NCBI GenBank assembly: GCA_037134655.1
Contig: JBAXLR010000001.1
Span: forward strand, 4,294-68,293
DNA: 64,000 nt
From: a bacterium
GTDB lineage: Bacteria > Bdellovibrionota_B > Oligoflexia > Oligoflexales > RGVZ01
Direction: 5' to 3'
Shown here: in pieces, positions 21,199-58,140 of the stretch
Position numbering within the stretch: the stretch's first letter is position 1
How the letters are laid out: each line of letters opens with the position of its first letter
Notes under the pieces: generated by a model
Databases searched by the model: none
The model's input: the letters and a program-made list of their open reading frames with translations, nothing else
What the model was told of the DNA's origin: nothing
Made by a program: the position numbers and the translations under genes

Positions 21199-21308
21199 TG
21201 GGGACACCCGACTGATTGAGTATTGATTAAACAGAGCACTCTAGCCGTGACACTGCTTCATTTCAGCAGATGCTGAATCAATAGCCAATCAGTCGGGTGT
21301 CCCCATTA
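21196..21308. repeat. long inverted repeat (23-bp perfect arms, extendable to 33 nt with a 2-nt mismatch) spanning the thrS / 21289 gene junction
   Basis: taatggggacacccgactgattg (21196-21218) is the exact reverse complement of 21286-21308. A further tattgatt/aatcaata pairing lies inside. Confidence 0.85.
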
Positions 21309-23920: not shown

Positions 23921-23980
23921 GACGATACCCTTCAACCCATTAGACTAGCACGGATAAATTTTTTAGGAGTTAAATTAAAG

Positions 23981-25626: not shown

Positions 25627-25662
25627 TATAGTCCGGAATCCGGACTTTGGAGGCATAAAATC

Positions 25663-26412
25663 ATGACAACGTACGACTTTTCCGGAAAATATTTTTTTGT
25701 CGCAGGTGCCGGCGGAGGAATAGGATCAGAGCTTTCCCGCCAACTTAAAAAATTTGGAGCCAATGTTTTCCTATGTGGTCGAGACGCACAAAAATTGGAA
25801 GCTCTGCAAGCAGAATTAGATTCCGACGGAGCGATCATCGACGGCGCAAGTTTTGCCAGTTACGAAGAGGCTATGGCCAAAGCTGCCACTCACGGTAAAA
25901 TATCGGGTGCTATTTGCTGTACCGGTTCAGTCATTTTGAAGTCAGCTCACGCCACCACGCAGCAGGAGTTTGACGCGACGATTGCTGCAAACGTCACAAG
26001 TGCATTTGGTATGCTTAGATCCTCTGCGAAAGCCATGATGGAGCAAGGTGGCTCGATTGTTTTGGTCTCATCAGCTGCGGCCCAAATCGGTCTTCAAAAT
26101 CACGAGGCGATCGCTGCCGCAAAAGGCGCCATCATCGGACTAACACGCTCCGCTGCCGCCACCTATGCTCGAAGTAACATTCGGGTAAACTGTATCGCGC
26201 CGGGACTAACCGAGACGCCGATGACGGCACGCTTAACGTCAAACGAGGCGAGCCGAAAAGCGTCTGAATCCATGCACGCTCTCGGGCGCCTGGGTAAGCC
26301 ATCGGATATCGTTTCAAGTATGCTTTGGTTACTGTCAGATGAAGCGAGCTGGGTCACAGGTCAAGTGATTGGTGTTGATGGTGGGCTTGGGTCTTTGAAA
26401 ACTCGGGTGTGA
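25663..26412 (+). CDS. short-chain dehydrogenase/reductase
   Basis: VAGAGGGIGSEL (TGxxxGxG), the AAKGA-type active-site region and IRVNCIAPG. ATG at 25663 with a GGAGG RBS; the longer track ORF is an upstream extension. Confidence 0.85.
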   Translation: MTTYDFSGKYFFVAGAGGGIGSELSRQLKKFGANVFLCGRDAQKLEALQAELDSDGAIIDGASFASYEEAMAKAATHGKISGAICCTGSVILKSAHATTQQEFDATIAANVTSAFGMLRSSAKAMMEQGGSIVLVSSAAAQIGLQNHEAIAAAKGAIIGLTRSAAATYARSNIRVNCIAPGLTETPMTARLTSNEASRKASESMHALGRLGKPSDIVSSMLWLLSDEASWVTGQVIGVDGGLGSLKTRV

Positions 26413-33033: not shown

Positions 33034-33492
33034 TCAAAGGGCCAAGTGCAGAGTTCCAGCCATGGCACCAACCGCAGCGCCATAGACAACGTGAGCAAAA
33101 AGATGCACCAATGCGACGTTGACACCAGTGACACGAAATCTTTGTAATGGATGATGCTCAGCCACAAAAATGACAAGTGCAATTGATGTGACCAGACCTT
33201 GAGCAAACCCACAGAATGCTCCAAGCTGAACATACCTAGCGACGCCGCCACTTGCAATCTCTGGAAACTGACTCCACACAAAGACGTAAATTAACGCAAA
33301 AAGAATGCCACCAGTGGCATGGATTAGAAGGCCAGGCTTGATGGAGTTCTCATATTTTTTGGTCAAAAGGCTGCCAAGGGCTCTGACCATGTCTCCGTTG
33401 GCAAAGCCCTGCCAGTGAAAAAGATAAAGGGTTAAAGTCATTAGACTGGTTGCAGCAACGCCTACTAGACACGTCATGATAAAATCATTCAT
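33034..33492 (-). CDS. hypothetical integral membrane protein
   Basis: 152-aa ORF with four hydrophobic helices. Confidence 0.4.
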   Translation of the reverse strand: MNDFIMTCLVGVAATSLMTLTLYLFHWQGFANGDMVRALGSLLTKKYENSIKPGLLIHATGGILFALIYVFVWSQFPEIASGGVARYVQLGAFCGFAQGLVTSIALVIFVAEHHPLQRFRVTGVNVALVHLFAHVVYGAAVGAMAGTLHLAL

Positions 33493-33613
33493 TATTCACC
33501 TCCCGACTGTCTTATTTACTGGAACCAGTATTTGAAAATTAATCAGTATTTATTTTGTATTATTCATCCGCCCAAAAATCTGTAAAAGCGAACTGACTAG
33601 ATATTTATCCAAT

Positions 33614-33653
33614 AAAAGAACCCCCCGTTGCGTCCAAAGACGCTAAAGGGGGG
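33614..33653 (-). terminator. rho-independent terminator after dabA
   Basis: Minus strand: cccccc-tttagcgtctttggacgcaac-gggggg followed by ttctttt, 38 nt after the dabA stop. Confidence 0.7.
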
Positions 33654-33690
33654 ATGTGATACAACCACAGACTATATTACAGATGCAGAC

Positions 33691-36189: not shown

Positions 36190-36222
36190 AATTGATACTC
36201 CTTCTTCTGCTGGCTAACTGAA

Positions 36223-37725
36223 TTAACTATTCACAGGCCACACGGCAGAAAGAACTTTCGAAGATTTTTGCGTAAAATAATTACCGTTCCACAAACTGAC
36301 ATAGAGTCGCTTAGAAAAAACGTCATTTGGGCGATAAAGCCTTCCCGCTAGATGGAAGCCGATTCCAAATATCACAAGTGAGATTGCGGACACGGCAAAT
36401 ATGGGTGAGCTAATTGTAACGACATCTAGTGTATCTGCTACGATGCTCTGCATACGCGTACCAACGTAGAATTCTATTCCTGTGTAAATAGCAACTGCTA
36501 AAAACATCATGCTTGCAATCGATGTGAAATATTTTAACCGGGAAAATTCACTTTTCGGCAGCACGACAACGCACTGCATCAGAGCAATAATCAATAATCC
36601 TGCATATGCAAAATATGAGAAGTGCGTACCATCTTGATAAACTACGCCGTATCCAAGCACCGTCAAACCAACGACGGTTGCGAGTGCGCTGTACCATGCA
36701 CCAAAAGGAGCCAACTGAAGAGACGACTTTTTGGACTCTCCGACCAGGTCCCCGGTGGATAAGAATGCGTAAGCTTTGTAAAAACTATGGGCGATGATGT
36801 GAAAAAGAGCAATTGAGTATGCGCCGAGACCACACGCAAAGATCATGAGTCCCATCTGACTAATCGTTGAATAAGCGAGTTTTTTCTTGATGTCATTTTG
36901 TGTGATCATCACAAGCGCACCATAGACGGCCGTAACGGCGCCGGCCAATGTTAGCAAAAGATGAGGCAGCTCAACGTGAGTTAGAAGTGGACTTAGACGG
37001 ATAATAAGAAATCCACCAGCATTGATTATGCCTGCATGCATGAGTGCAGATACAGGGGTAGGCGTTTCCATCGTCTCGGGAAGCCAAAAATGAAGTGGAA
37101 ACTGAGCCGATTTAGCGATCGCACCTAACGCCAGGAACACGCCGGCAGATGCAATCATTGATCCGTTGGCGGAGGCAAATGCCTGGTCTGCTGCAAGAGC
37201 GAAAATACGCTCGAATTCAAATGACTTAAAAACATTGTAGCAGATCACAAAGCCTGCCAATAAAAACAAATCTCCTAGGCGACTAATCAAAAACTTCTTA
37301 CGCGCAGCAGCCACGGCCAGCGGTCTTTGAGGATAAAACAACAAGAGGCGGTGTAGACCAATACTAGAAAGACACCAAGCAATGAAGAACATGATTAGGT
37401 TACTGGATAATACCAGTAAGGATACTGCTGATACAGTAAACAAAAGATTTTTGTAGAAGTATCCTTGACGCTCCTCGCCGTCTAAATAGCGTAGAGAGTA
37501 CTGACTAATAACAGCTCCAAGCACTGAGATCATCGCAAAAAGTACCGTCGACAATGCATCAACCTTGAAAGATAAATTCAAATCAAGGCCCGCTACCATA
37601 CCACTTAGTACTGTAAACGTACCCGGCCCATTGACAGCCTCCCAAGCAAACAAAGCCACAGCAAGAACACCCTGAGTGAGTAGCGTCCAGTGGACCAAAC
37701 GTATTTCTAATCCTTGTCGATGCAT
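36223..37725 (-). CDS. dabB: NuoL/MrpA-like proton-conducting membrane subunit DabB
   Basis: About 13 TM helices. WLPETMETPTPVSALMHAGIINAGGFL matches the NADH-quinone oxidoreductase chain 5 / Mrp antiporter core. Start set at the ATG at 37725 (GAGGAGAGGAAG RBS). Confidence 0.8.
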   Translation of the reverse strand: MHRQGLEIRLVHWTLLTQGVLAVALFAWEAVNGPGTFTVLSGMVAGLDLNLSFKVDALSTVLFAMISVLGAVISQYSLRYLDGEERQGYFYKNLLFTVSAVSLLVLSSNLIMFFIAWCLSSIGLHRLLLFYPQRPLAVAAARKKFLISRLGDLFLLAGFVICYNVFKSFEFERIFALAADQAFASANGSMIASAGVFLALGAIAKSAQFPLHFWLPETMETPTPVSALMHAGIINAGGFLIIRLSPLLTHVELPHLLLTLAGAVTAVYGALVMITQNDIKKKLAYSTISQMGLMIFACGLGAYSIALFHIIAHSFYKAYAFLSTGDLVGESKKSSLQLAPFGAWYSALATVVGLTVLGYGVVYQDGTHFSYFAYAGLLIIALMQCVVVLPKSEFSRLKYFTSIASMMFLAVAIYTGIEFYVGTRMQSIVADTLDVVTISSPIFAVSAISLVIFGIGFHLAGRLYRPNDVFSKRLYVSLWNGNYFTQKSSKVLSAVWPVNS

Positions 37726-37834
37726 TGCTTCCTCTCCTCTATTAGAAAAATCTGGAAAATCGATTTTTAAAAAGTAACTGTGGTCAAAAAAGGTTCGCTT
37801 TGTGTTCTGCACTAAGACTCTAGCAGCTGAATTC

Positions 37835-37860
37835 AATATACGCAATGTATATCGTATATT
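37835..37860. promoter_or_regulatory. inverted repeat AATATACG-N10-CGTATATT in the dabB / HTH divergent region (candidate operator)
   Basis: Perfect 8-bp arms at 37835-37842 and 37853-37860. Confidence 0.35.
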
Positions 37861-37895
37861 TTTATTCGTAATTTAGTATTCGGCACTTATAATTC

Positions 37896-37924
37896 TTGAC
37901 TTATGTGTCGTAAGATGCTAATTT
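37896..37924 (+). promoter_or_regulatory. candidate sigma70-type promoter of the HTH gene
   Basis: TTGACT (37896-37901), 17 nt, TAATTT (37919-37924). The AAGGGGG RBS and the ATG at 37946 follow. Confidence 0.3.
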
Positions 37925-37945
37925 TACCCCATAAAGGGGGCAACT

Positions 37946-38239
37946 ATGAGCGAATCAGAAGACACCAAGGAGTGGACTTTTTTGACCAACCACCTTCACG
38001 TCCTACTGGTCATTGCCTCCAGAGGCGACCTCGTTTTGAGAGAAGTTGCAAATTTGGTAGGTATTACTGAGCGAGCTGTTCAAAAGATCGTCATGGAATT
38101 AGAAGACGCTGGGTATTTAATTAGAGAACGAGTAGGTAGGGTCAACCACTACACCGTGGATCTAAATCGCCCTCTTAGGCATACCTTGGAAAGGCATCAT
38201 ACTGTTGGGGCTCTGATTCGTATTCTGCAGAAAAAGTAG
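37946..38239 (+). CDS. small winged-helix (ArsR/MarR-like) transcriptional regulator
   Basis: 97 aa. LREVANLVGITERAVQKIVMELEDAGYLIRER is a typical HTH plus wing. Divergent from dabBA. Confidence 0.6.
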   Translation: MSESEDTKEWTFLTNHLHVLLVIASRGDLVLREVANLVGITERAVQKIVMELEDAGYLIRERVGRVNHYTVDLNRPLRHTLERHHTVGALIRILQKK

Positions 38240-38253
38240 CCGTTGTTACCCTT

Positions 38254-39574: not shown

Positions 39575-39862
39575 TTCCAAAATCCCTCCGATGATGTTTT
39601 TGTCTGATCGGGTGCTGGGGGACATTTCTAAACGACATCGGGCGGAGGATCGGCCTACCGAGGACCACTTTTATTCAATAAAACCAGGATGTTATAAAAT
39701 ATCGCGCGGGCCTGCTATTGCATGATCATGTCGCTGAAAAAGTGATGAAAGTCATGTTTCACTGATCGGTAAAACTCCAAGCAACTGGTTTTGACGTACT
39801 GCTGAGAAAAAATACCATCGTAAATTTAGACATCGCTATGCCAAGCATAGCTCGACAGGGGA

Positions 39863-40017
39863 GATTCGAAATTTCTTCGACAGAGTTGCTTCTTTCGAAT
39901 CCCACAGACTTGGAAAATAAAAACACCACACATCGCCTGTGCAGCACAGGTTTTGGAGGTGAAGATAACTATTTTGTGGCCACATTACTCACCACACCAA
40001 GGTTCATATTTCGAATC
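39863..40017. promoter_or_regulatory. three copies of a TTCGAA-centred 10-mer upstream of the rhodopsin gene (candidate regulator sites)
   Basis: gattcgaaat (39863-39872) is the exact reverse complement of atttcgaatc (40008-40017). ctttcgaatc (39892-39901) matches 9/10. Confidence 0.35.
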
Positions 40018-40140
40018 AGGCACGATGATTTGATTCAGCTTGATTGACCTGAGTGCTTCATCCGTGAGACAATTATGCAGGTTTTTCAGAGAAGTTTTAG
40101 GTGTTTAGATTGCTAATTTAATTTGGAGTGGAGTCAAAGT

Positions 40141-40902
40141 ATGACGGAACTAACAGCAGGGCAGTTTTCGCTCGTTTACAACATGTTTTCTTTAACAATT
40201 GCCAGTATGGGTGCAGCATTCATATTCTTCTTGGCATCACGGTCTAGTGTTGCCCCGAAATACCGCGGCGCACTAACGGTCTCGGCTTTGGTTGTAGCTA
40301 TCGCTTGCTATCACTACTTCCGTATCTTCAATAGCTGGAATGAAGCATTCACCCTAAGCGGCGCCGTCTATGCTCCGTCTGGCAAGCCTTTTAACGACGC
40401 TTACCGCTATGTTGACTGGCTTTTGACTGTTCCATTGCTACTTGTTGAGCTTGTTGCTGTATTGGCTCTACCTAAAAATCAACGCGAAGGTCTATTTGGC
40501 AAGCTAGCAATTGCTGCTTTCCTCATGATTGCACTTGGTTACCCAGGTGAAGTCGCAACTGACAATACGACACGCGCCATCTGGGGCACACTGTCCTCGA
40601 TCCCATTCGTTTACATCCTTATGATCCTTTGGGGCAAATTGGGTGCGGCGATCGAAAGCCAGCCAGGTGAAGCTAAAGTCTACTTGACCAACATTCGCCT
40701 CCTTCTTCTCTTGACCTGGGGCTTCTACCCAATCACCTACATGCTGCCTATGTTCGGCATTGACCCACAATCATCGGTTGTTGGTATTCAGGTTGGATAT
40801 GCTGTCGCTGACGTGCTTGCAAAAGCCTTCTACGGCGTGATGATCTACTGGATCGCCAGAGCTAAGTCTGAAAACGAAGGTTTTGCTGACGCAGCTCACT
40901 GA
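40141..40902 (+). CDS. xanthorhodopsin-clade light-driven proton-pumping rhodopsin
   Basis: RYVDWLLTVPLLLVEL gives the D-T-E motif (D92/T96/E103 from the ATG at 40141). YHYFR provides the His. ADVLAKAFYG provides D224/K228 (Schiff-base Lys). The protein resembles Salinibacter xanthorhodopsin over its whole length as I recall that sequence. GGAGTGGAG RBS. Confidence 0.92.
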   Translation: MTELTAGQFSLVYNMFSLTIASMGAAFIFFLASRSSVAPKYRGALTVSALVVAIACYHYFRIFNSWNEAFTLSGAVYAPSGKPFNDAYRYVDWLLTVPLLLVELVAVLALPKNQREGLFGKLAIAAFLMIALGYPGEVATDNTTRAIWGTLSSIPFVYILMILWGKLGAAIESQPGEAKVYLTNIRLLLLLTWGFYPITYMLPMFGIDPQSSVVGIQVGYAVADVLAKAFYGVMIYWIARAKSENEGFADAAH

Positions 40903-40935: not shown

Positions 40936-42954
40936 CTATTGATAGGCCGCCTCTGCTGAAAAGCGAGGCGGTTTTCTTTTAAGAAATCGTTTCATGGCCG
41001 GGGCGTGGGATGCCGTCAAGGCCCCAACACCCAGAAAAACAACCTGCCAAAGCTGGTTTTGATCACCGGAGCGGGCGTAGATCCAGGCTATGACACCAAT
41101 GCCAAGGATACTTGCTACCGTGTAGCGGAGGCTTTTACTTACGTATTGCTTGGCCGTCCAGTCATTGGCAGCCCTTTGCGCCAGAATAGAATCCCAGCCA
41201 TGCCAGAACGCGAAGAAACAAAAAAACCCAGGCAGTAGGGGTAGCGCCAGTATGGAAGCGGCCAGAACCAGTGTGGCGGGCAAACCAATGACCGCCCTTC
41301 CGAGGGCTTTGCGCTCGTATCGATCTAGATTGCCAGCTGCAAAAATCCCTGCAATAAAAACCAAAACACCGCACCAACGCGCAGCCTCTAAGGTTATTCC
41401 CGTGACAGAAGCCGAGTCTCTAAGGATTAACTGGATAATTGGGCTCGCCTCCTGCCAATGCATGAACACCCCAAACGTTGCGGCAAACAATCCCCACTGC
41501 CAGGCCAAAACGCGACTCCAAAGGGCATAGCCTGAATTTTTGATGGCACGAATCCAATTTGCTTCACCAAAATGATCAGCTGATTGAAACAGGAAAAAAC
41601 CTAGTGCCAGGGGCGGGTACAGCCACCACATGAGAACAAAAAGGATGATGGAGCCAAGGTACAGACCGTAAAATTCGCGGGGTTTACGAGCTACTGGATC
41701 AAGTAGATGATCGAGGCTGCCATGGCCGATTCCAGCAGTTAAAAGACCGATCATTGGAATAATCCATCCGGCGACTCCACCGACGGTCCAATGGAGTGCA
41801 ATGCTTGCAGATACTGCAAAGATAAATGGGTAAAAAACTACAAGACTGCGTAAGAATGGCCCCCAGGGAAGGCCAAAAAATATTTTAATTTCCTCCCCGA
41901 AGCTGGACCTCTCATCAAGGAACGCGAAAATTTTTGAGGGACTATTTGCAGAAAAAAGCACGAGAAAAATCTTGGAGATGAACTCCCCCTGGGTCCTGAT
42001 GATCCTTAGAAGAAGAGCATCATAAACCTGAAACCGAAAATGCCCATATGACGTATTTGCTGAACCAGTCAGATGTCGAAGATTTCTTTGAAAAGAGTAG
42101 CCTGTACTGGCTTTGACCATTCCAGCAGCACTGCCGATTGTCTCAATCACGGAATTGAGTTCTGGTGGGGGGAACTTTGACGCTGCTCCTAGAGTCATGG
42201 GAATAGCGCCTGACTCCACTTTAAGAATCCGAAAATTTGGCAAAGAAAGCTTTCGAGCAATATAATCTCGAAGGATCGACTCACACTCCTCGGTAGTGAT
42301 TCTTTTGGCCGCAAATACGGTGAATTCCACCAAGGCTCGACGTCTGTCAAAAGGCAGGATGTAAACAAAGCGAACCTCGCCCACCTGGTCTAGCCTAAAA
42401 TCCATTAAATCAACCAGGTGAGGATCAAAGTAGTCCTCTTCAGTTTCAAGCTCAAAGCCAAGAAAATACTGCAATAATTCTGGTTTTTGAACCGTCACAG
42501 AATTAAAGATATGCTTTGCCGCGAACGTCTGGCCAGATGTGGTCGTCACAAACGCTTTTTTCCTGGATGACCCCACGTCAGATTTCTCGTTGATCGTTGT
42601 GACAGAATCAACCACTCGATGAAATCGGCTATCATTCTCAAGGCGGTTTTTGATTTTTAAGAGCAGCCGTTCGCCGGGAATTCGCTCGTAGTAATAATCG
42701 CCAAAATCACGAACGACTTTTTGACCCTCAGTCGACGTTATTCGAAATCTTTCCCAGCGATTTTCGATGCAATCCGCGTAACGATGGGGCTTAGACGTTT
42801 TCAGCCGCCAAGAGGCAAAGGTCTTTGACGAAAGGGAATCCGGATCGGGATCGATGATGGCAACCCGCAGATCCCTCGACGGATCATCTGCGAGGATGTC
42901 GGCTTGCATGAGGCCAGCCAGGCCGCCGCCAACGATAATAACGTCAAAATCCAT
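40936..42954 (-). CDS. fusion protein: lycopene beta-cyclase (CrtY-type, N-terminal) + Brp/Blh beta-carotene 15,15'-dioxygenase (C-terminal)
   Basis: N-terminal half: DVIIVGGGLAG, RFVYILPF, GAIPMT, AGMVKASTGYSF, FLDERS. C-terminal ~300 aa is polytopic with GHGSLDH, SADHFGE, FWHGWDS and SHAP (the four-His Brp/Blh pattern). The ATG at 42954 overlaps the upstream stop as ATGA. Confidence 0.8.
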   Translation of the reverse strand: MDFDVIIVGGGLAGLMQADILADDPSRDLRVAIIDPDPDSLSSKTFASWRLKTSKPHRYADCIENRWERFRITSTEGQKVVRDFGDYYYERIPGERLLLKIKNRLENDSRFHRVVDSVTTINEKSDVGSSRKKAFVTTTSGQTFAAKHIFNSVTVQKPELLQYFLGFELETEEDYFDPHLVDLMDFRLDQVGEVRFVYILPFDRRRALVEFTVFAAKRITTEECESILRDYIARKLSLPNFRILKVESGAIPMTLGAASKFPPPELNSVIETIGSAAGMVKASTGYSFQRNLRHLTGSANTSYGHFRFQVYDALLLRIIRTQGEFISKIFLVLFSANSPSKIFAFLDERSSFGEEIKIFFGLPWGPFLRSLVVFYPFIFAVSASIALHWTVGGVAGWIIPMIGLLTAGIGHGSLDHLLDPVARKPREFYGLYLGSIILFVLMWWLYPPLALGFFLFQSADHFGEANWIRAIKNSGYALWSRVLAWQWGLFAATFGVFMHWQEASPIIQLILRDSASVTGITLEAARWCGVLVFIAGIFAAGNLDRYERKALGRAVIGLPATLVLAASILALPLLPGFFCFFAFWHGWDSILAQRAANDWTAKQYVSKSLRYTVASILGIGVIAWIYARSGDQNQLWQVVFLGVGALTASHAPAMKRFLKRKPPRFSAEAAYQ
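40947..40980 (+). terminator. rho-independent terminator of the rhodopsin gene
   Basis: ccgcctc (40947-40953) pairs with gaggcgg (40965-40971), then ttttctttt. It lies inside the 3' end of the convergent crtY-blh ORF. Confidence 0.7.
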
Positions 42955-44111
42955 CAAATCGGCGACCACTTGATCACCCGACCCTTCCATTCATAAGAGC
43001 CGCGCAAGCTCGTTCTGAGAGACTTGTAAGCAGCTATATTGAATAGTAACAAACTGAGGGGATGTAAAAGCACATCACGAAGTGGCATCTTAAATAATTT
43101 TGCCGTCAACATTCGGCTTACTAAAACCAACCCTAGAGAAATCAGCGCAAATTGCGGGCGAAAAAAATAGCCCCACAATGGAAACATAAAAACAAGATTC
43201 ACCAGAATGACCACACACCCAAAAACTAGTGGCGTGCCTCCCCCAATCATGACCAAATTTTTTGAGAAGCCGGCTAGCGTAGCCCGCCAATCAGAATACA
43301 TGGCCACACTGATATCAGTTGCTGCCAAAACAGGCTGCACACCACGACCTGTCACCCGCTGAATCTGACGAGCTAGTGCAACGTCTTCAAGTGGTGTCAC
43401 ACCAAGCCTTTGGTGCCCTCCACTAGCATAATAATCAGGCTTGAATAACGCAATCCACTGTCCGTTAGCCATTTGCATTGACTTGAAAGGCAGACGCCAC
43501 GTGCAAAATAGCGGTAATGACATCAGCAAAGGAAGATGCATGATCCAAGGAATCAACAGACGCTCTAGTAATCCTTCACACGACTGTGCTGGTAAAGCTG
43601 TTAGACCAGCCATTTTTTCTCTCGCGCCAGGCTTCATCATCAAATTGACGGTATTCCGAATAGCCGTGGGTGATGGCCTAACATCTGCATCACAAAAGAT
43701 CAAAATCTCACCCTTTGCCACTGCAGCAAGCTGGGCACAAGCATGGGCTTTGCCTGAAAGTTGGGTCGCTTCCGACCATGGAATTCCCGCTACGATACGC
43801 ACGGGGAATGGAGCATCTGACATTAGATCTGTAGCGATTTTTGCTGAATGATCTCTAGATCCGTCATCTAATATAATGACTTCAAGGGGCTGATAGGTCG
43901 AATTCAGTAAAGCTGGCAGAAGATGTCGTAGGTTATTCGCCTCGTCACGCACAGGCACGAGAAAACTTACCAGTGGTTTTTCGGTGGTGGTAACCTCAGA
44001 TTGTCCCATCTTTGCAGCCAACGCTGCATTAAGGATGACCATTAAAGTCGTGACACAACACGCCAGTAAACAAAACCAACAGACCACATCAATCAGCAAC
44101 GCTGCATTCAT
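42954..44111 (-). CDS. family-2 glycosyltransferase (carotenoid glycosyltransferase CruC-like by context)
   Basis: FLVPVRDE, ILDDGSRD, FCDADV (GT2 DxD) and C-terminal TM helices. ATGA overlaps on both sides within the carotenoid operon. Confidence 0.65.
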   Translation of the reverse strand: MNAALLIDVVCWFCLLACCVTTLMVILNAALAAKMGQSEVTTTEKPLVSFLVPVRDEANNLRHLLPALLNSTYQPLEVIILDDGSRDHSAKIATDLMSDAPFPVRIVAGIPWSEATQLSGKAHACAQLAAVAKGEILIFCDADVRPSPTAIRNTVNLMMKPGAREKMAGLTALPAQSCEGLLERLLIPWIMHLPLLMSLPLFCTWRLPFKSMQMANGQWIALFKPDYYASGGHQRLGVTPLEDVALARQIQRVTGRGVQPVLAATDISVAMYSDWRATLAGFSKNLVMIGGGTPLVFGCVVILVNLVFMFPLWGYFFRPQFALISLGLVLVSRMLTAKLFKMPLRDVLLHPLSLLLFNIAAYKSLRTSLRGSYEWKGRVIKWSPI

Positions 44112-44782
44112 CAGCCACCACCTGCTAATAAAGCTTGGGGTGCGCTGATTGAGGCTAGATCCAAAAGCCTCGTAACTTCGGCTTCCAAAGTCTTGTGATC
44201 GATATTTTTACTGAGACTATCAATCGGCTGACCCGCATAAATGAAAACGGTTGGTTTCTCCTGGGTCATAGGCTCAATGTGAAGCCCTAGTGGCACATAC
44301 TGAACGCGACCAACTATCTTTGCCAAAGTTTCAATGCCACGACGAAACCCAAGCGGTCTTTGACGCAGAGGCGAGATTTCACCTTGGGGGAAATAGGTCA
44401 GAGTCCGGTATGGATTTGCAGCCGCCAGATCACGAAACTGGATGAAGGCTCTACGCACGCTTACTGGATTACCAGGTTCCAACCCAAAACATCCGATTTT
44501 ACGTAAAATGGGAAACTTCTTTAGCTCGCTTTCGAGCATCAAAGAATAGATACCCGATCCAGGACGAAGCCGATTTTGGACTTCAAAGCAAAAAAATCCG
44601 TCCCACCAGCTGATGTGATTAGGAACCAATATGACAGGTAACTTCGGATCAAGCTGACCCAGTGCGGCGTCCAAATCAAAATGGATGGATGCAAAAGCTC
44701 TACGGTACTTCCACTGTAAGTACCTATCCCAAAACCACCTTACATTGTCATTATGCCTGGGTGACACGGGTTCGAAATCCAA
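44111..44782 (-). CDS. PlsC-family acyltransferase (carotenoid glycoside acyltransferase CruD-like by context)
   Basis: NHISWWDG is the HxxxxD acyltransferase motif. 223 aa, within the carotenoid operon. Confidence 0.6.
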   Translation of the reverse strand: MDFEPVSPRHNDNVRWFWDRYLQWKYRRAFASIHFDLDAALGQLDPKLPVILVPNHISWWDGFFCFEVQNRLRPGSGIYSLMLESELKKFPILRKIGCFGLEPGNPVSVRRAFIQFRDLAAANPYRTLTYFPQGEISPLRQRPLGFRRGIETLAKIVGRVQYVPLGLHIEPMTQEKPTVFIYAGQPIDSLSKNIDHKTLEAEVTRLLDLASISAPQALLAGGG

Positions 44783-45671
44783 GCGGTAATGTGCCTCGGC
44801 TCAAGCCAAATATATAGAGCACTAGCAGTGTCAATGCCGTGAGAATCACGGGCGACCAGGCTGCACCGGCTATGGATAACCCAACCGGAAGGAACAAGTT
44901 TAGGAAGTAAAATTTTATCGGCCATGAACGCTCGAAGCGATGTCCATAGTTACCGAGCCCTAGTGCTTCAAAACTGAGGAATATTAAAAATCCAGTGAGT
45001 AACCAACCTAGAAGATTTCTGACCGCTACGCCGAGGAAAAAGACTCCAGATTCTTCCCAGATCCAATATGGAGTCAACTGGCTCATGGCTGGTTCAAGTG
45101 TGAAATCCCAAGCAATGAGCAATAAAGACGCTACTGCAATTCGCCCTAAAGAAAATCGCAATTGATCGAGCCTTCCTTGAAAGACCCTCCGAGGTTTGCG
45201 TCCAATAATCTGAGTTGCAAGGAGATGACAGCAAAGGGTCATGCAAAACCAGCTGATCGGAATCAGCACTGGGACTTTATCGCCAAGCTGCCAACCGAGA
45301 AGGCTCGTATACGAGTATTTGCCAAAAGGTATACCGTAACTGGTACCACCAAATTCCATAAAAAAACTGATCAAAAACGCTGAGAAAAAGTAGGCGAGCC
45401 AGCGCCAGCCCAAAACCTTATGGGCAGCCTGTATGCACAGCCAAAAACAAAGAAGAATCTGCAATCTCGCAAAAAGCGGGTATGATATGGCATAGATTGG
45501 CGGTGACCAAGGAAAACGCGCAAACAACTCTGGATGCAGCGTAAACGTGGCGTATCCAAAGATTGAAATCGCATTGATGAAAAGCAAAGCCCACATTGGA
45601 GAAAAGAATAGCACATGAGTCCCTTGGAGCAAGGACATTTGGGGGCCACCAGAATCCCAGTCAGGGATCAT
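44751..45671 (-). CDS. membrane carotenoid biosynthesis protein (CruF-like carotenoid 1,2-hydratase family)
   Basis: Polytopic. GIPFGKYSYT and AWDFTLEPAM...YWIWEE resemble the conserved PF04240-type motifs as I remember them. The true start may be an internal Met. Confidence 0.55.
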   Translation of the reverse strand: MIPDWDSGGPQMSLLQGTHVLFFSPMWALLFINAISIFGYATFTLHPELFARFPWSPPIYAISYPLFARLQILLCFWLCIQAAHKVLGWRWLAYFFSAFLISFFMEFGGTSYGIPFGKYSYTSLLGWQLGDKVPVLIPISWFCMTLCCHLLATQIIGRKPRRVFQGRLDQLRFSLGRIAVASLLLIAWDFTLEPAMSQLTPYWIWEESGVFFLGVAVRNLLGWLLTGFLIFLSFEALGLGNYGHRFERSWPIKFYFLNLFLPVGLSIAGAAWSPVILTALTLLVLYIFGLSRGTLPLGFRTRVTQA

Positions 45672-46376
45672 CTAGCACCCATTTTGGCCTTCTGTGTCAT
45701 TGGCGCCTGGGCATTTAGCCTCTGGTACGCGTTCTTCCATCTGCGTACCGGGATTTTCCCCGACTCTTTGGCCAGTATCGGCATGATGCTTTGGATGCAG
45801 TTTCTTAATTGTGGACTTTTTATTGTCACTCACGACGCCTGCCATGGTACTGCCTGGCCTGGGCATCCCAGACTGAATCGCTGGTTAGGAAAGACCACCG
45901 CGAGGCTCTATGCTGCCTTCAATTTTGATCGGCTTGTGCCAAAGCATCTCGCCCATCACGTCCATGTCGCCACTAATCTAGACCCGGACTTTAACGATCA
46001 CACCAAAAAGGGTGAAGGATTTTTCGCCTGGGGATGGCGATTTTTCCGCCAATATCTGAGCTTTAGCCAAATTATTATCATGATGGGGGTCGCCCAAATT
46101 TTCTTTCATATTCTAAAAATACCCGAAAGAAACGTGATCCAGTTTTGGGTTGTGCCGGCTATTATGAGCAGCATTCAGCTCTTTTACTTCGGAACGTGGT
46201 TACCGCACCGAGTCATCCCTGGAAAAGACTTCGCTGATAAGCATCATGCCAGAGATTCTGGACTGCCTTGGATATTATCACTCGTCTCATGCTGGCATTT
46301 CGGCTACCATCATGTGCATCACCTTAAACCGGGCGTGCCATGGTTTCGGCTACCCTCCCAAAGGAGAACATCATGA
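45615..46376 (+). CDS. crtW: beta-carotene 4-ketolase
   Basis: Three His boxes HDACHG, HLAHHVH and HHVHHL. FGTWLPHR and PWFRLP are typical of CrtW. Confidence 0.88.
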   Translation: MSPLEQGHLGATRIPVRDHLAPILAFCVIGAWAFSLWYAFFHLRTGIFPDSLASIGMMLWMQFLNCGLFIVTHDACHGTAWPGHPRLNRWLGKTTARLYAAFNFDRLVPKHLAHHVHVATNLDPDFNDHTKKGEGFFAWGWRFFRQYLSFSQIIIMMGVAQIFFHILKIPERNVIQFWVVPAIMSSIQLFYFGTWLPHRVIPGKDFADKHHARDSGLPWILSLVSCWHFGYHHVHHLKPGVPWFRLPSQRRTS

Positions 46377-46579
46377 AAGTTCAATCAATCCTAATGTGGA
46401 CACTTGGCGGAGCGTTATTTGGAGTTGCCTTCGGAGCGATCGCTTCCATCTTTCAAGGCGGTCCAGACGTGATGCGAGGCATACAAGAATCATGGTGGTG
46501 GTTTGCGGGAGCTGGATTTCTGATCTCAACGATCGGTAATCGCAGGTCACAAGTTGGACGTTCGCAACAGGCCGGCTGA
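46373..46579 (+). CDS. small two-helix membrane protein co-transcribed with crtW
   Basis: 68 aa. AAGGAG RBS. The ATG at 46373 overlaps the crtW stop (ATGA). Two hydrophobic segments. Confidence 0.4.
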   Translation: MKVQSILMWTLGGALFGVAFGAIASIFQGGPDVMRGIQESWWWFAGAGFLISTIGNRRSQVGRSQQAG

Positions 46580-47446
46580 TCCCAATGCTTTGATCGCAAA
46601 AACCAGAAAAATCCCCTGAGCTACGGCTATTATTTTTCCCGCACTTGAAACAATTGTGCGCCTGCGAAATGCCAACTCAGGATTAGATTTAGCAGCCCTC
46701 AATAGTTTATGACCAATGCGCTGATAAACCTTTCCAGCGACCGCGATGGCAAATGAAACGCGCCAGGGCAACCAATAAATACCTTGAAATCCGTGCTCAT
46801 ACAAATCGTCGGCGCGACTCAGTAGCCTACTCACTGCTCCGGAAGCGAGCTCTGGGTTAGTCGATAACTCTTCATGTGTCGTTTCTGGTAAAAAATCCTT
46901 GGGTATATAAACTCGGCCAAGACGCGCATCCGTTTGGATATCCCTCGCGATATTAGTGAGCTGCATGGCAGAACCGAGGGACATGGCATGTGGACTTGCC
47001 ATTTTTGGCTCTGCTCCCAGAAGTGGGCACATCATGAGTCCCACCACACCAGCGACCCTAAAGCAATACTGCTCAAGCTCTTGCAAGCTCTTGTAGCTGT
47101 GGCCTTCCACATCCATACGCATACCGGCAATAAACTCAGACCTCTGCCAATCGTTCACCCAAGCGGGCCCGGCGAGGCTAGCGCCCGCTGATCGTCGATC
47201 TTCCATCTTAGTGAGCATCACCCTTGCCGACTGGGCATCGGGTGCGTCGTCGATGGCATCATCACAGCGTCTGCACCACTGATAGAGCATCAGAACTTTT
47301 TCCCGGCAATTCACGGGTAAGAAAAGTGACGCTAGGGAAAAACTCTTTGATCCCTGTCTGATAACCTCAGCAGGGGATGCATTAAAATCAATTGGTGGTG
47401 ACTGGATCATGTAGGACCCGTGGTTTGCGGTCTCGAATGGGACCAT
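46547..47446 (-). CDS. crtB: phytoene synthase
   Basis: SKSFSLASLF, YQWCRRCDDAIDD, YCFRVAGVVG and NIARDIQTDARLGRVYIP. An alternative start exists at 47410. Confidence 0.9.
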   Translation of the reverse strand: MVPFETANHGSYMIQSPPIDFNASPAEVIRQGSKSFSLASLFLPVNCREKVLMLYQWCRRCDDAIDDAPDAQSARVMLTKMEDRRSAGASLAGPAWVNDWQRSEFIAGMRMDVEGHSYKSLQELEQYCFRVAGVVGLMMCPLLGAEPKMASPHAMSLGSAMQLTNIARDIQTDARLGRVYIPKDFLPETTHEELSTNPELASGAVSRLLSRADDLYEHGFQGIYWLPWRVSFAIAVAGKVYQRIGHKLLRAAKSNPELAFRRRTIVSSAGKIIAVAQGIFLVFAIKALGSAGLLRTSNL

Positions 47447-48950
47447 AAGCTTTTAAGTCTTCAAGCACAAGCGTTGCCGTGGCCTTGGCTGAGTTCACAA
47501 CACCGGGCACACCAGCGCCTGGATGTGTCCCGGCCCCCGTAAAGTACATTCCAGCCACACGGTCATCACGGTTATGAGTACGAAAGAACGCACTTTGCCA
47601 AAGAACCGGCTCACTTGAAAATGCCGATCCTAGATGGGAGTTTAACTCCACCTTGAAATCCATCGGCGTGAAAATTTTCTGGGTTACGATGTGCTGACGC
47701 AAACCCGGCGCATAGTGTTGCTCGATGTAATTTAAGATGCGGTCAGCGTAGGCTGGGCCTTCTTTTTTCCAGTCAACATTGAGATTTCCCAGATGTGGAA
47801 CGGGCGATAGAACGTAAAATGCCTCACACCCTTCCGGCGCCATCCCAGGATCAGTCCGTGTTGGAGCATGCAAATAAAGGGAAAAATCATCTGGGATTTT
47901 TTTAGCCTTAGTAAAGATCTGACTTAGAAGCCCGCGGTAAGACTTTCCAAAAAGAATATTATGGTGTGCAAGCTCCGGATACTGCCTGTTTGTGCCAAAA
48001 TAAATTAAAAATAACGACATGCTCTGCGAGTGACCAAGGACTTTCTTACGCCCTGGTGCGGCCTCTGGAACATTGCGCAAAAGATGACTATAGCTGTGCA
48101 CTACATCGGCGTTTGAAACGACCACATCACAAGGCCAAACACCCTCTGCAGTCTTGATCCCGCTGACTTGGCCCTCAGCTGTAAGAATCTCTTCAACCGA
48201 AGACGACAAGCGAACCTCACCACCCATCTCCTCGAAGAGTCTGACTAAGGCCTTGACCAAAGCACCAGTCCCCCCACGCGGGAAGAAGACACCCCAATTT
48301 CGTTCAAGATAGTGAATCAATGTGTAAATCGACGATGTTTTAAATGGATTACCACCAACCAAAAGCGTGTGGAAGCTGAACGCTTGTCGCAGTTGTGGAT
48401 CCTTAATAAATCGCGCGACTGTTTTGAAGACGGAGCGATGGGCGCTGAGCTTCACCAACTGTGGTGCCACACGAATCATACTCCACCAGTTTAGAAACGG
48501 CACGTGGGCCAACTTGGTATAGCCTTCGTCAAAAACTTCTTTTGAATACTTTAAGAACTTGGAGTAACCGTCAACGTCCTGTGGTGATTTTTTTTGGATC
48601 TGATCGAATGTACTGACAGGATCATTTGAGTAATCAAAGGAAAAACCATTTTCCCAGAATAGACGGTAGAATGGCGTGACTGGCATCATCTCCACGTAGT
48701 CTTCCATTTTCTTACCAGCACAGTCAAAAAGCTCACGCAGACAGTCTGGGGCCGTAATAACGGTCGGTCCTGCATCAAAGATGAAACCCTTGTCGCGGTA
48801 AACGTAGGCTCTGCCGCCAGGCTGATCACGCTTTTCAAATATAACGACCTTGTTTCCCGCCGCTTGCAAGCGAATGGCGGCGGCAAGACCTCCAAAACCA
48901 CTACCAATCACAGCTATTCGAGTGGACTCTTTTGATTTACGCATATGCAC
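47388..48950 (-). CDS. crtI: phytoene desaturase
   Basis: IAVIGSGFGGLAAAIRL, EKRDQPGGRAY and C-terminal FTGAGTHPGAGVPGV. Confidence 0.92.
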   Translation of the reverse strand: MHMRKSKESTRIAVIGSGFGGLAAAIRLQAAGNKVVIFEKRDQPGGRAYVYRDKGFIFDAGPTVITAPDCLRELFDCAGKKMEDYVEMMPVTPFYRLFWENGFSFDYSNDPVSTFDQIQKKSPQDVDGYSKFLKYSKEVFDEGYTKLAHVPFLNWWSMIRVAPQLVKLSAHRSVFKTVARFIKDPQLRQAFSFHTLLVGGNPFKTSSIYTLIHYLERNWGVFFPRGGTGALVKALVRLFEEMGGEVRLSSSVEEILTAEGQVSGIKTAEGVWPCDVVVSNADVVHSYSHLLRNVPEAAPGRKKVLGHSQSMSLFLIYFGTNRQYPELAHHNILFGKSYRGLLSQIFTKAKKIPDDFSLYLHAPTRTDPGMAPEGCEAFYVLSPVPHLGNLNVDWKKEGPAYADRILNYIEQHYAPGLRQHIVTQKIFTPMDFKVELNSHLGSAFSSEPVLWQSAFFRTHNRDDRVAGMYFTGAGTHPGAGVPGVVNSAKATATLVLEDLKAYGPIRDRKPRVLHDPVTTN

Positions 48951-50028
48951 GCATCACTTTCTGCGCAAGCTCTCGCAAGGAAGACTGCGCCAACTTGTGC
49001 GCGTCAGTTTTAACAAGACTATTGATCTCATCCATACAGTTTTCAAATTCAACTACAGCCAGTTCAGTGGCTCTTTTAACTATTTGGTCGACAAGTGCTC
49101 CAGTTGTGCAAAGGCCGCCCATCATACTTTGGAATTTTGCGAATTCCTCGGAGCTAAGCTCTCGCGCAGCCACAGCCCAAACCCAAGAAGGCCTGAGTAG
49201 GGGGCGAAGCGCTTGATCGTCTTTAATTTTTGCAAAGACTTCTCCAATATCGTTAAACATCTGTAACGCGACGCCAAATCTTTGGCCAAGTGTGGTTAAT
49301 TGACGACGACGAGTCGGTTCTGCATTTCCAACAATTGCACCCAGCTCTGAGCACATGGCGGTAAGCTCACCCGTCTTTAATTCGATTGCAGCAACGGAAA
49401 TTTCGAAGCCTTCAGCTTGCGAAGTTTTGGTCATATCATGCCCCAAATCAAGGGCTTGGCCCTGATGGGCTCGCATCATGGTCTTATGAAACAGACGGTA
49501 GATCTCAAGCTCCATAGCTGGCTCAAGAGTCTGCTGCCGCAGTAAATCGGTTGGCCAAAAATAAAGCCAGTTGGCCGCATTGATGGTACGCGGAACGCCA
49601 ATTTGCATATGAAGAGCTGCTTTGCCGCGACGCATGTCGTCAGCATCTTGAATATCATCGATCATGAGTGAACCGGCATGGAGTGCCTCCACCACGCAAG
49701 CCATGCAGTCGAGCAGCTTTTCTTGATCGGCGTTTGGTGATACGCCGTGGCTGGTAGCAAGACTAAAGCCGATTCGGACCAGTTGCGCCCGAACCTGCTT
49801 GGAATCACGGCTGACAAATTCACGAACAGGCACGAGTAAGGCACTATCAATGCCGGGCGTGTCGACGCCCGCGCGAGCCGAGGTTGGTAATAGCTCCGCC
49901 AACAGGGGCAACTGGGCGCTCCCAATGACGTTTTTTTGTAAATTTGCTGGATTGTCAATCACACGTAATAGCCTACTGGATGAGACCAAATGGGTCAAGG
50001 AATGTGAGTAAAAAATAGCACCACCCAC
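48937..50028 (-). CDS. crtE: polyprenyl (geranylgeranyl) diphosphate synthase
   Basis: HAGSLMIDDIQDADDMRRG (first DDxxD) and INAANWLYF, like type-III GGPPS. The second motif is degenerate (FNDIGE). GTG start. Overlaps the crtI start. Confidence 0.75.
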   Translation of the reverse strand: MGGAIFYSHSLTHLVSSSRLLRVIDNPANLQKNVIGSAQLPLLAELLPTSARAGVDTPGIDSALLVPVREFVSRDSKQVRAQLVRIGFSLATSHGVSPNADQEKLLDCMACVVEALHAGSLMIDDIQDADDMRRGKAALHMQIGVPRTINAANWLYFWPTDLLRQQTLEPAMELEIYRLFHKTMMRAHQGQALDLGHDMTKTSQAEGFEISVAAIELKTGELTAMCSELGAIVGNAEPTRRRQLTTLGQRFGVALQMFNDIGEVFAKIKDDQALRPLLRPSWVWAVAARELSSEEFAKFQSMMGGLCTTGALVDQIVKRATELAVVEFENCMDEINSLVKTDAHKLAQSSLRELAQKVMRAYA

Positions 50029-57053: not shown

Positions 57054-57065
57054 AAATCTGAACTT

Positions 57066-57815: not shown

Positions 57816-58140
57816 ATAAAGATCCTCGACACGTATAGTACTCACCATTGTACGGCCGACGCCTGAGGGTTGTCGAATGACTACATGAGACCATGTCTTA
57901 GCTTATGGTTTTGGGAAACACGACGTTACACATCAACCTAAAATTATGTTTATATTGTTCTATTTTCATTTTTTTCATATTTCGCCAAATACGTTTGGCC
58001 AATCACAAACGGCCCGCCGGGTAGCGGACCCACAAGTTGCGGAGAACTGTGGCCTTACAGGGCTAAGGTTTACCCCCGAGGGCTCCGATCCACCTGCCAA
58101 TCATTGAGACCTTTCTGAAACGCCTAGGGAGTTTGAAATT

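Follow-up and report, generated by a model that had tools for sequence, protein, structure and literature searches.

A xanthorhodopsin-family gene of a freshwater Oligoflexales bacterium and the adjacent gene cluster that may supply its retinal and a keto-carotenoid antenna

Introduction

The gene at 40141-40902 is an ordinary member of the xanthorhodopsin family, carried by a freshwater Oligoflexales (Bdellovibrionota) bacterium, and it adjoins a cluster of carotenoid and retinal genes that is conserved beside it in related bacteria. The best explanation of the whole, to which we give a probability of roughly 0.55, is that the protein is a light-driven proton pump tuned to green light, with both its retinal and a salinixanthin-type antenna made by the products of the neighboring cluster. 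By itself the gene adds little, being one more fenestrated xanthorhodopsin among thousands, and related solved structures exist. In this article, we draw on sequence alignment, a structure model, the gene neighborhoods of homologues and the published work on characterized relatives to assess each part of this explanation. Positions refer to the window, i.e., the whole 64-kb stretch of DNA that was analyzed, and the features discussed are collected in Table 1.

Table 1. Position and assignment of the rhodopsin gene, the nearby signals and the neighboring pigment genes in the window.
Feature	Position	Strand	Details
Sigma-70-like promoter match	40044..40073	+	TTGACC, 18-nt spacer, GACAAT, TG extension; consensus match only
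Shine-Dalgarno-like GGAGTGGAG	40125..40133	+	second GGAG 7 nt 5' of ATG 40141; read from the sequence
Xanthorhodopsin-family rhodopsin gene	40141..40902	+	253 aa; DTE (D92/T96/E103), H58, L100, G149, Y200, D224, K228
Lycopene cyclase::Blh fusion	40936..42990	-	684 aa; CrtY-type, residues 16-307; Brp/Blh beta-carotene 15,15'-dioxygenase, residues 411-663
Intrinsic-terminator-like hairpin (GCCGCCUC...GAGGCGG) followed by UUUUCUUUU	40941..40980	+	downstream of the rhodopsin stop codon
Family-2 glycosyltransferase	42954..44111	-	PF00535, 67 bits; candidate carotenoid glycosyltransferase, CruC/CruG-like role
PlsC-type acyltransferase	44111..44782	-	PF01553, 22.9 bits against a cut-off of 23, borderline; candidate carotenoid-glycoside acyltransferase, CruD-like role
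CruF-family carotenoid 1',2'-hydratase	44751..45671	-	PF04240, 148.5 bits (cut-off 25)
CrtW-type beta-carotene 4-ketolase	45615..46376	+	NF045690, 221.6 bits, E = 1e-65; below the equivalog cut-off of 350
Phytoene synthase CrtB	46547..47446	-	PF00494, 180.8 bits
Phytoene desaturase CrtI	47388..48950	-	TIGR02734, 659 bits against a cut-off of 238
Polyprenyl (GGPP) synthase	48937..50028	-	PF00348, 119 bits

Family membership, fold and active-site residues

The protein matches the Pfam family Bac_rhodopsin (PF01036) with 131 bits against a cut-off of 24.6, far more than chance would give. In a phmmer search of the PDB the best match was the xanthorhodopsin of Salinibacter ruber (XR; PDB 3DDL; E = 3.8e-88), followed by Gloeobacter violaceus rhodopsin (GR; 6NWD; E = 2.7e-85), psXR from an Antarctic Pseudanabaenaceae cyanobacterium (9WFA), Kin4B8 (7YTB/8I2Z) and TR, all between E = 1e-76 and 1e-88; other classes of rhodopsin gave values of about 1e-27 to 1e-31 (NaR/ClR), 1e-23 (PR) and 1e-11 (BR). 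Identity in the alignment described below is 61% to XR, 57% to Kin4B8 and 55.6% to each of GR and psXR. The fold agrees with this placement. An AlphaFold2 model (pLDDT 90.3, pTM 0.87) shows seven long helices plus an N-terminal/ECL1 sheet, and its top 50 fold matches in the PDB are all microbial rhodopsins. Foldseek ranked GR first (query TM 0.94, rmsd 1.0 Å), then psXR, Kin4B8 and XR, and superposition of the model on these four structures gave TM values of 0.91-0.95 (query TM 0.95 for Kin4B8).

An earlier note on this DNA had assigned the functional residues from the peptides RYVDWLLTVPLLLVEL (starting at residue 89), YHYFR (57), RAIWGTLSS (145) and ADVLAKA (223), and the translation places H58, D92, T96, L100, E103, G149, D224 and K228 exactly where that note had put them. 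We aligned the protein with XR, GR, Kin4B8, psXR, bacteriorhodopsin (BR) and proteorhodopsin (GPR) using MAFFT L-INS-i, the BR and GPR sequences having been checked against the PDB beforehand. The proposed DTE motif is unshifted in this formal alignment, with D92, T96 and E103 opposite BR D85, T89 and D96. L100 lies opposite BR L93, XR L104 and GPR L105, the proteorhodopsin tuning site to which it had been assigned, and H58 is the equivalent of the histidine of xanthorhodopsin and proteorhodopsin (XR H62, GR H87, GPR H75). D224 aligns with BR D212, and K228, the Schiff-base lysine of helix G, with BR K216, XR K240 and GR K257. G149 occupies the position of BR W138, XR G156 and GR G178, as the note had it, and also that of Kin4B8 G153 and psXR G172; Y200 of helix F corresponds to XR Y207 and Kin4B8 Y204. 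Neither the alignment nor the structural model, both of which the note had proposed as checks, places a bulky residue at the fenestration position, and all of its assignments hold. MAFFT placement was unreliable near two indels, and two pairings there were left unused; GPR P150 was set opposite G149 where published alignments have Phe, and XR F217 opposite F205 where a published table gives XR Ala (PMC12308411).

In the mechanism that we propose, retinal would be held as a Schiff base on K228, D92 (paired with H58 through a presumed hydrogen bond) and D224 would act as counterion and proton acceptor, and the DTE motif would be completed by T96 and by E103, the latter donating protons from the cytoplasmic side. 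With Leu100, absorption would lie in the green at roughly 540-560 nm, where GR and Kin4B8 also absorb. XR, GR, Kin4B8 and psXR all carry these DTE, His, Leu and Gly residues too, and the reading as an outward H+ pump, made already in the earlier note, agrees with all characterized relatives; Kin4B8 and psXR are themselves described as outward proton pumps (PMC12779958 among the sources). We consider it very probable that the protein is an XR-type light-driven outward proton pump. Since outward transport is read here from motifs, a sensory rhodopsin, an inwardly directed pump or one specific for a different ion would be conceivable, but highly improbable given that the full DTE motif, His58, R89, D224 and K228 are present and invariant, that the structurally solved Na+ and Cl- pumps match far more weakly than XR, and that no transducer or signaling gene is adjacent.

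The gene, its conservation and its flanks

The open reading frame encodes 253 residues followed by a stop codon, and an identical protein is already in public data. An alternative start, TTG at 40123, lies six codons upstream of the ATG at 40141; the ATG is the better start because of the GGAG listed in Table 1 and because the identical protein and the nearest homologues (P0001-P0007) are also 253 residues long.

Among 134 close homologues the catalytic and tuning residues (DTE, H58, L100, R89, D224 and K228) are invariant, while Gly149 is found in 133 and Y200 in 131. These conserved features identify the family rather than anything unusual in this gene, and in a published survey about 55% of environmental xanthorhodopsins carried glycine at the fenestration position. 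The closest comparison is with the related Bdellovibrionota locus L001, where the rhodopsin is 98% identical at the protein level and the neighboring proteins are 64-90% identical, a pattern that raised the possibility of recent horizontal transfer. We rejected transfer in favor of purifying selection because the third codon positions are only 67% identical to L001, against 97.6% for positions 1 and 2; the gene is under purifying selection.

Signals around the gene are few. The sigma-70-like match upstream agrees with 9 of 12 consensus positions, but the evidence for a promoter is weak because the region holds five such sites where 1.8 would be expected. A regulatory RNA or repeats upstream of the rhodopsin were considered and rejected: tmRNA was the sole Rfam match in the 64-kb window, the repeats in 39600-40160 were short pairs only, as chance would give, and the promoter scan produced no more than weak matches to the consensus. 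The hairpin downstream of the stop codon lies within the 3' end of the convergent cyclase::Blh reading frame and has a free energy of -21.2 kcal/mol (z = -4.06), with none of 200 shuffled sequences equally stable; the pattern scanner did not pick it up. Genes for DabA/DabB inorganic-carbon uptake lie about 2 kb upstream. A functional link to the rhodopsin was rejected as unsupported because the segment that holds them (33457-38253) is missing both from six sibling contigs with an identical rhodopsin and from the surroundings of the rhodopsin in nine related loci (L001-L009).

The carotenoid pocket

Gly149, which replaces BR Trp138 on helix E, would leave a gap in the side of the protein next to the retinal ring; a carotenoid could dock there with its own ring and pass the energy of blue light to retinal. 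Glycine in place of Trp or Phe at XR position 156 serves as the criterion for an antenna (PMC12308411; PMC12779958), and bulky replacement of the equivalent glycine (Kin4B8 G153F, GR G178W) abolishes carotenoid binding; a fenestration may also be secondarily blocked by another side chain (PMC12779958). Of the open, carotenoid-binding fenestration proposed in the earlier note, the glycine is confirmed and the openness is a prediction from it. The carotenoid-contact residues defined in GR are kept: the locking residues G178/T179/T182/F185 correspond to G149/T150/S153/F156, with one conservative change from Thr to Ser, and the aligning residues P226/I227 correspond to P197/I198. Binding of some carotenoid antenna is a prediction that we regard as probable.

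Which carotenoid this would be is a separate matter. The earlier note had the glycine making room for a 4-keto ring; the substitution stands, but glycine alone does not specify a 4-keto ligand because Kin4B8 and psXR, with the same glycine, use 3-hydroxy xanthophylls. According to a proposed rule, a hydrophobic pocket floor marks binders of 4-keto carotenoids and a polar floor binders of 3-hydroxy carotenoids (PMC12308411). From our alignment and the table in that paper, the floor is Y200/M201/M204/F205 here, Y/M/M/A in XR, Y/L/M/L in GR and Y/A/S/Y in Kin4B8, so that positions 208 and 209 of Kin4B8 (S, Y) are M204 and F205 here, M/A in XR and M/L in GR. The rule is not decisive for a keto ligand because psXR, which has a hydrophobic floor of the GR type (Y/L/M/L), bound lutein and did not bind canthaxanthin (PMC12779958).

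The same proton pump might use a zeaxanthin-, lutein- or nostoxanthin-type 3-hydroxy xanthophyll, synthesized by genes in another part of the genome or acquired from the environment or from prey, as has been proposed for freshwater xanthorhodopsins such as Kin4B8 and psXR. Besides the behavior of psXR, this alternative has in its favor that Kin4B8, which comes from an uncultured freshwater member of the Bdellovibrionota, bound lutein and zeaxanthin with 40-55% energy transfer and salinixanthin without transfer, 4-keto carotenoids being bound with poor or no transfer and 3-hydroxy xanthophylls preferred (PMC12308411), and that recent papers argue 3-hydroxy antennas to be the commoner kind (PMC12779958). 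The native carotenoid of Kin4B8 is stated to be unknown (PMC12308411). On the other side, the polar S208 and Y209 that contact the 3-hydroxyl in Kin4B8 are replaced by M204 and F205, identity to Kin4B8 is only 57%, and none of the 80 homologue loci that we fetched matches Kin4B8 above 64%. With the gene content described in the next section, which also bears on the question, we judge a 3-hydroxy antenna unlikely.

The neighboring pigment genes

The best available support for a 4-keto antenna comes from the neighboring genes, a ten-kilobase cluster that would supply both chromophores. Beta-carotene would be made by GGPP synthase, CrtB, CrtI and the cyclase half of the fusion protein (CrtY::Blh), and then cleaved to retinal by its Blh half. 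The remaining enzymes, i.e., CrtW, CruF, glycosyltransferase and acyltransferase, would carry the monocyclic branch on to a salinixanthin-type 4-keto carotenoid acyl-glycoside. The proposed salinixanthin pathway of Rhodothermus consists of CrtB, CrtI, CrtY, a ketolase, CruF, CruC and CruD.

The individual assignments differ in how closely they match their models. The cyclase::Blh fusion scores 175 bits with PF05834, 97 bits with PF15461 and 105 bits with TIGR03753 (cut-off 95); it is kept in six of the related loci (L001-L006), most of the best 120 database clusters contain it too, and a search of the literature on bacterial lycopene cyclase::Blh fusions or Oligoflexales xanthorhodopsins found nothing specific. 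The CrtW-type ketolase has the histidine motifs HDACH (73), HLAHH (111) and HHVHH (232). CruF itself (NF045693) is the best NCBIfam match of the CruF-family gene, at 134.9 bits and below the equivalog cut-off of 400; gene callers on the sibling contigs use a start that gives 287 residues, equivalent to 44751-45614 in the window. The glycosyltransferase matches CruG weakly (30.7 bits). Both it and the acyltransferase stand where such genes would be expected and are conserved together; they are assigned by family and position only, and the models specific to CruC and CruD matched neither. CrtI scores 324 bits with the model for the bifunctional CrtID, whose cut-off is 640. We predict a product that is salinixanthin-like rather than salinixanthin because neither a 3',4'-desaturase nor a 2'-hydroxylase was identified in the 64-kb window.

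The linkage of these genes to the rhodopsin is conserved. All nine related Bdellovibrionota loci (L001-L009) have the cyclase/Blh gene, the glycosyltransferase, the acyltransferase and CruF beside the rhodopsin, eight of the nine have CrtW there as well, and the same arrangement recurs in six sibling contigs. Profile searches of the reading frames found no carotenoid 3-hydroxylase in the cluster or elsewhere in the 64-kb window, which is the part of the genome covered, so that such a gene could lie elsewhere; this, together with the ketolase conserved beside the rhodopsin, tells against a 3-hydroxy antenna.

The cluster could also serve other ends. In a further reading, the protein pumps protons but has no functioning antenna in the living cell; the glycine would be a feature inherited by the whole clade, and the neighboring genes would only make beta-carotene for retinal and a glycosylated keto-carotenoid for photoprotection of the membrane. 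The glycine is invariant across the clade whatever the neighbors, and most of the 80 fetched loci have no such cluster within 10 kb; the possibility of secondary blockage of the fenestration (PMC12779958) points the same way. An antenna is moreover not needed for function, because GR G178W pumps better than the wild type, and Rhodothermus makes salinixanthin-type pigments while the role of its carotenoids is still debated. Set against these points, XR, GR, Kin4B8 and psXR each bound a carotenoid when given a suitable one, the contact residues are kept as described above, and the genes for the rhodopsin, the ketolase and the glycoside ester remain close together in different genera even where the neighboring proteins have fallen to 34-50% identity. 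We hold a pump without a working antenna to be improbable, at about the same level as one with a 3-hydroxy antenna.

From the adjacent conserved cluster and the hydrophobic pocket floor, which resembles that of XR, we infer a self-made 4-keto carotenoid antenna. A salinixanthin-type 4-keto acyl-glycoside is the most likely native antenna, and the specific proposal that the antenna is a self-made 4-keto glycoside ester has, in our estimate, slightly less than an even chance.

Comparison with characterized xanthorhodopsins

Salinibacter ruber xanthorhodopsin (also SrXR) shares with the present protein the DTE motif and the histidine, leucine, glycine and tyrosine aligned above (H62/H58, L104/L100, G156/G149 and Y207/Y200), as well as two methionines (M208/M201 and M211/M204). 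Its antenna, salinixanthin, is a 4-keto acyl-glycoside, and the cluster here encodes enzymes of the classes that such a pigment requires. The two differ in that the three-residue D-E loop insertion and the five-residue F-G loop insertion of SrXR are absent here, and SrXR F157 is T150, as in GR. The present host is a freshwater member of the Oligoflexales, whereas that of SrXR is an extreme halophile of the Rhodothermaceae, and the ketolase is of the CrtW type where the related Rhodothermus pathway has CrtO. The antenna of SrXR is known; the one proposed here is a prediction.

GR, the best structural match, has the same loop lengths and the same locking and aligning residues, apart from the change noted above, and binds 4-keto carotenoids, e.g., echinenone and canthaxanthin. 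Its floor has L230 and L234 where the present protein has M201 and F205, its host is a cyanobacterium that also has chlorophyll photosystems (PMC12779958), and the cluster genes were not detected within 10 kb of GR-like cyanobacterial loci. Kin4B8 shares habitat and phylum, being a freshwater Bdellovibrionota protein with the same DTE motif, His, Leu and fenestration glycine (G153), and experiments have demonstrated both that it pumps protons outward and that it has a working antenna. It differs in its polar floor (A205/S208/Y209, against the hydrophobic M201/M204/F205), and it performs best with xanthophylls of the 3-hydroxy kind and poorly with those carotenoids that have a 4-keto group. psXR is likewise a fenestrated DTE xanthorhodopsin and shares the hydrophobic floor; its choice of lutein over canthaxanthin was considered above.

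Implications

More broadly, freshwater Oligoflexales and other Bdellovibrionota may carry a self-contained two-pigment photosystem cassette of about 10 kb, comprising the xanthorhodopsin, the cyclase-dioxygenase fusion and the gene set for a 4-keto acyl-glycoside antenna, a proposal that we put forward tentatively. If true, a keto-type antenna would be natively encoded in bacteria other than Salinibacter and Gloeobacter, the two cases named in the papers on which we drew, and this would place a keto-type antenna in a habitat where hydroxylated antennas are argued to be commoner (PMC12779958). The xanthorhodopsins of a single phylum would then be split into those with keto-type pockets (the present clade) and those with hydroxy-type pockets (Kin4B8).

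Few fenestrated rhodopsins have a known native antenna pigment; here a candidate pathway adjoins the pump and is conserved with it, which would allow the rhodopsin and its antenna to be reconstituted in E. coli from a single DNA fragment. Such a rebuilt system could test whether the polarity of the pocket floor separates keto from hydroxy antennas, and whether light adds to the energy supply in a phylum known mainly for predatory bacteria.

Family, fold and key residues of the rhodopsin

The rhodopsin gene is an unbroken reading frame of 253 codons plus a stop. We prefer its ATG at 40141 over the upstream TTG because a GGAG lies 7 nt 5' of the ATG and the resulting length of 253 aa is shared by the identical protein and the nearest homologues (P0001-P0007). 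Directly 3' of the stop codon stands a strong hairpin (-21.2 kcal/mol, z = -4.06) followed by UUUUCUUUU. The protein matches Pfam Bac_rhodopsin with 131 bits (cut-off 24.6), evidently no chance resemblance. In a phmmer search against all PDB chains the best matches were xanthorhodopsin of Salinibacter (XR; 3DDL, E = 3.8e-88), Gloeobacter rhodopsin (GR; 6NWD, 2.7e-85), the Antarctic cyanobacterial psXR (9WFA, 7.7e-83), Kin4B8 from an uncultured freshwater Bdellovibrionota bacterium (7YTB, 1.1e-82) and thermophilic rhodopsin (TR; 5AZD, 1.6e-76), with Na+ pumps, Cl- pumps, proteorhodopsins and bacteriorhodopsin (BR) far weaker. Identity is 61% to XR, 57% to Kin4B8, 55.6% each to GR and psXR, 31% to green proteorhodopsin (GPR) and 26% to BR. 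The fold predicted by AlphaFold2 from 59 sequences (pLDDT 90.3, pTM 0.87) finds its best PDB matches in GR (query TM 0.94, rmsd 1.0 A), psXR, Kin4B8 and XR.

An earlier note, aligning by eye, had proposed a green-tuned DTE proton pump with an open carotenoid-binding fenestration. All eight residues that it named (H58, D92, T96, L100, E103, G149, D224 and K228) and its four quoted peptides occur as described in the translated frame, and its equivalences were reproduced by a MAFFT L-INS-i alignment of the protein with XR, GR, psXR, Kin4B8, TR, BR and GPR, the last two confirmed against the PDB beforehand. D92, T96 and E103 align with BR D85, T89 and D96, without a shift of the motif; L100 falls on BR L93 and GPR L105, the proteorhodopsin tuning site; H58 corresponds to XR H62 and GPR H75, and D224 and K228 to BR D212 and K216. 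G149 occupies the position of BR W138, XR G156, GR G178, Kin4B8 G153 and psXR G172. The bulky fenestration residue or displaced DTE motif that the note itself had named as evidence against its reading was thus looked for, and the outcome favors the note, whose interpretation holds up within the reach of sequence analysis and structure prediction. Since Q217 stands at the position of BR E204, the protein, like XR and GR, would be without a proton-release pair of the BR type. We put the probability that it is an XR-type proton pump at about 0.9.

Conservation and prior record

Among 134 homologues of 62-100% identity, H58, D92, T96, L100, E103, D224 and K228 are invariant and position 149 is Gly in all but one (133/134), so that the DTE and fenestration features define the clade and not this gene in particular. 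The loci closest to it come from metagenome-assembled genomes (MAGs): an Oligoflexales bacterium (L001, 98% protein identity), one labelled Pseudobacteriovorax (91%), a second Oligoflexales (88%) and several Bdellovibrionota (71-75%). Against L001, where the rhodopsin gene occupies 10001-10762, the neighboring proteins are 64-90% identical, and the rhodopsin genes agree at 97.6% of first and second codon positions and at only 67% of third positions, which indicates strong purifying selection and rules out recent transfer as the cause of the 98% protein identity.

The protein is a further member of a well-known group and is already public, the identical sequence being present on at least 31 contigs in NCBI, JGI, ENA and Logan assemblies, labelled only "bacteriorhodopsin"; a relative at 90% identity is annotated as xanthorhodopsin. 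Opsin genes of freshwater Bdellovibrionota MAGs are mentioned in passing in the literature, and Kin4B8, a freshwater XR of solved structure for which a lutein/zeaxanthin antenna has been proven, comes from an uncultured Bdellovibrionota (Chazan et al. preprint). The fenestration Gly occurs in ~55% of environmental DTE xanthorhodopsins (Chazan et al. preprint).

Six sibling contigs carry an identical rhodopsin in DNA 89-96% identical to the window. They lack a segment with an inorganic-carbon uptake pair and a small regulator, ~1.9 kb upstream of the rhodopsin, between flanks of that same 89-96% identity; this is a strain-specific insertion or deletion, and the adjoining 1.3 kb is likewise strain-variable.

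Features of the window
Feature	Position	Strand	Remarks
tmRNA gene	2915-3269	+	tag peptide GNEYALAA; Rfam RF00023, 142 bits
NmrA/epimerase-like protein, 252-aa protein, flavin amine-oxidase-like protein, short-chain dehydrogenase	21289-26412		amine-oxidase-like protein at 24574-25656, a possible carotenoid desaturase; glutathione peroxidase adjoins
Segment missing from sibling contigs	33457-38253		~4.8 kb
DabA	33691-36189
DabB	36223-37845
MarR-like HTH	37946-38239
Strain-variable segment	38254-39601
Alternative rhodopsin start, TTG	40123
Rhodopsin	40141-40902	+
Lycopene cyclase::Brp/Blh beta-carotene dioxygenase fusion	40936-42990	-	684 aa
Family-2 glycosyltransferase	42954-44111	-	by family and position only
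PlsC-type acyltransferase	44111-44782	-	by family and position only
CruF-family hydratase	44751-45671	-
CrtW-type ketolase	45615-46376	+	HDACH, HLAHH, HHVHH motifs
CrtB	46547-47446	-
CrtI	47388-48950	-
GGPP synthase	48937-50028	-
Signaling cluster	54900-62089		two response-regulator proteins, 954-aa multi-PAS histidine kinase, hybrid kinase

The adjoining carotenoid cluster

A carotenoid cluster lies directly downstream of the rhodopsin gene and convergent with it. The arrangement is kept in all six sibling contigs and in L001-L004, the nearest loci, the L004 contig (8.6 kb) stopping short of the GGPP synthase. In L005-L009, five Bdellovibrionota loci at greater distance, the rhodopsin continues to adjoin cyclase/Blh, glycosyltransferase, acyltransferase and CruF. 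Eight of these nine loci have CrtW. The cluster has the same functional enzyme set as the proposed, partly knock-out-tested salinixanthin pathway of Rhodothermus (CrtB, CrtI, CrtY, ketolase, CruF, CruC and CruD). CrtD was not found in the cluster, nor was a carotenoid 3-hydroxylase, a 3',4'-desaturase or a 2'-hydroxylase in the 64-kb window; with the last two not found, the product would be salinixanthin-like at most.

The cyclase::Blh fusion brings the two closing steps of retinal synthesis together in one protein. Its two-domain architecture recurs in the majority of the top 120 database clusters, which, where an organism is named, belong to Bdellovibrio, Bdellovibrionales, "Proteobacteria" or an unclassified bacterium MAG; it is present in L001-L006, and in L007-L009 the Blh half alone adjoins the rhodopsin. 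A literature search found no paper describing such a fusion. The longest divergent frames of CruF and CrtW share 57 bp at their 5' ends; sibling-contig gene calls start CruF later (287 aa), so that the two genes would abut with no intergenic promoter region.

Which carotenoid?

The protein probably binds some carotenoid antenna. According to a proposed rule (PMC12308411), the ligand is set, after the glycine and a conserved tyrosine, by the floor of the pocket: a polar floor selects 3-hydroxy xanthophylls and a hydrophobic floor 4-keto carotenoids. At Kin4B8 positions 204/205/208/209 the floor reads Y/A/S/Y in Kin4B8, Y/M/M/A in XR, Y/L/M/L in GR and Y200/M201/M204/F205 here, a hydrophobic floor that has both methionines in common with XR. 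In GR, G178, T179, T182 and F185 together with P226 and I227 lock and align canthaxanthin (GR mutagenesis study); their counterparts, G149, T150, S153, F156, P197 and I198, are retained. Hydrophobic floor, retained GR residues and linked ketolase together favor a self-made 4-keto carotenoid glycoside ester as the antenna. We hold this preference tentatively, at somewhat less than even odds, because psXR has a GR-type floor yet binds lutein and does not bind canthaxanthin (PMC12779958), because Kin4B8, from the same phylum as the host, shows good energy transfer solely from 3-hydroxy xanthophylls (PMC12308411; Chazan et al. preprint), and because of the family-level transferase assignments and the missing desaturase and 2'-hydroxylase.

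Proposed mechanism and implications

By homology, the cyclase::Blh fusion would make the retinal that binds K228; light would isomerize it, a proton would move to D92, partnered with H58, and E103 would reprotonate the Schiff base from the cytoplasmic side. Leu100, also present in GR (543 nm) and Kin4B8 (~560 nm; Chazan et al. preprint), would set the absorption maximum in the green. Gly149 would leave an opening in the side of the protein, at which the ring of a carotenoid may meet the retinal ring and hand over blue-light energy. With rhodopsin and pigment genes in one compact, conserved cassette, the native antenna can be put to a direct test by heterologous expression, and the protein offers a natural contrast to Kin4B8 inside one phylum.
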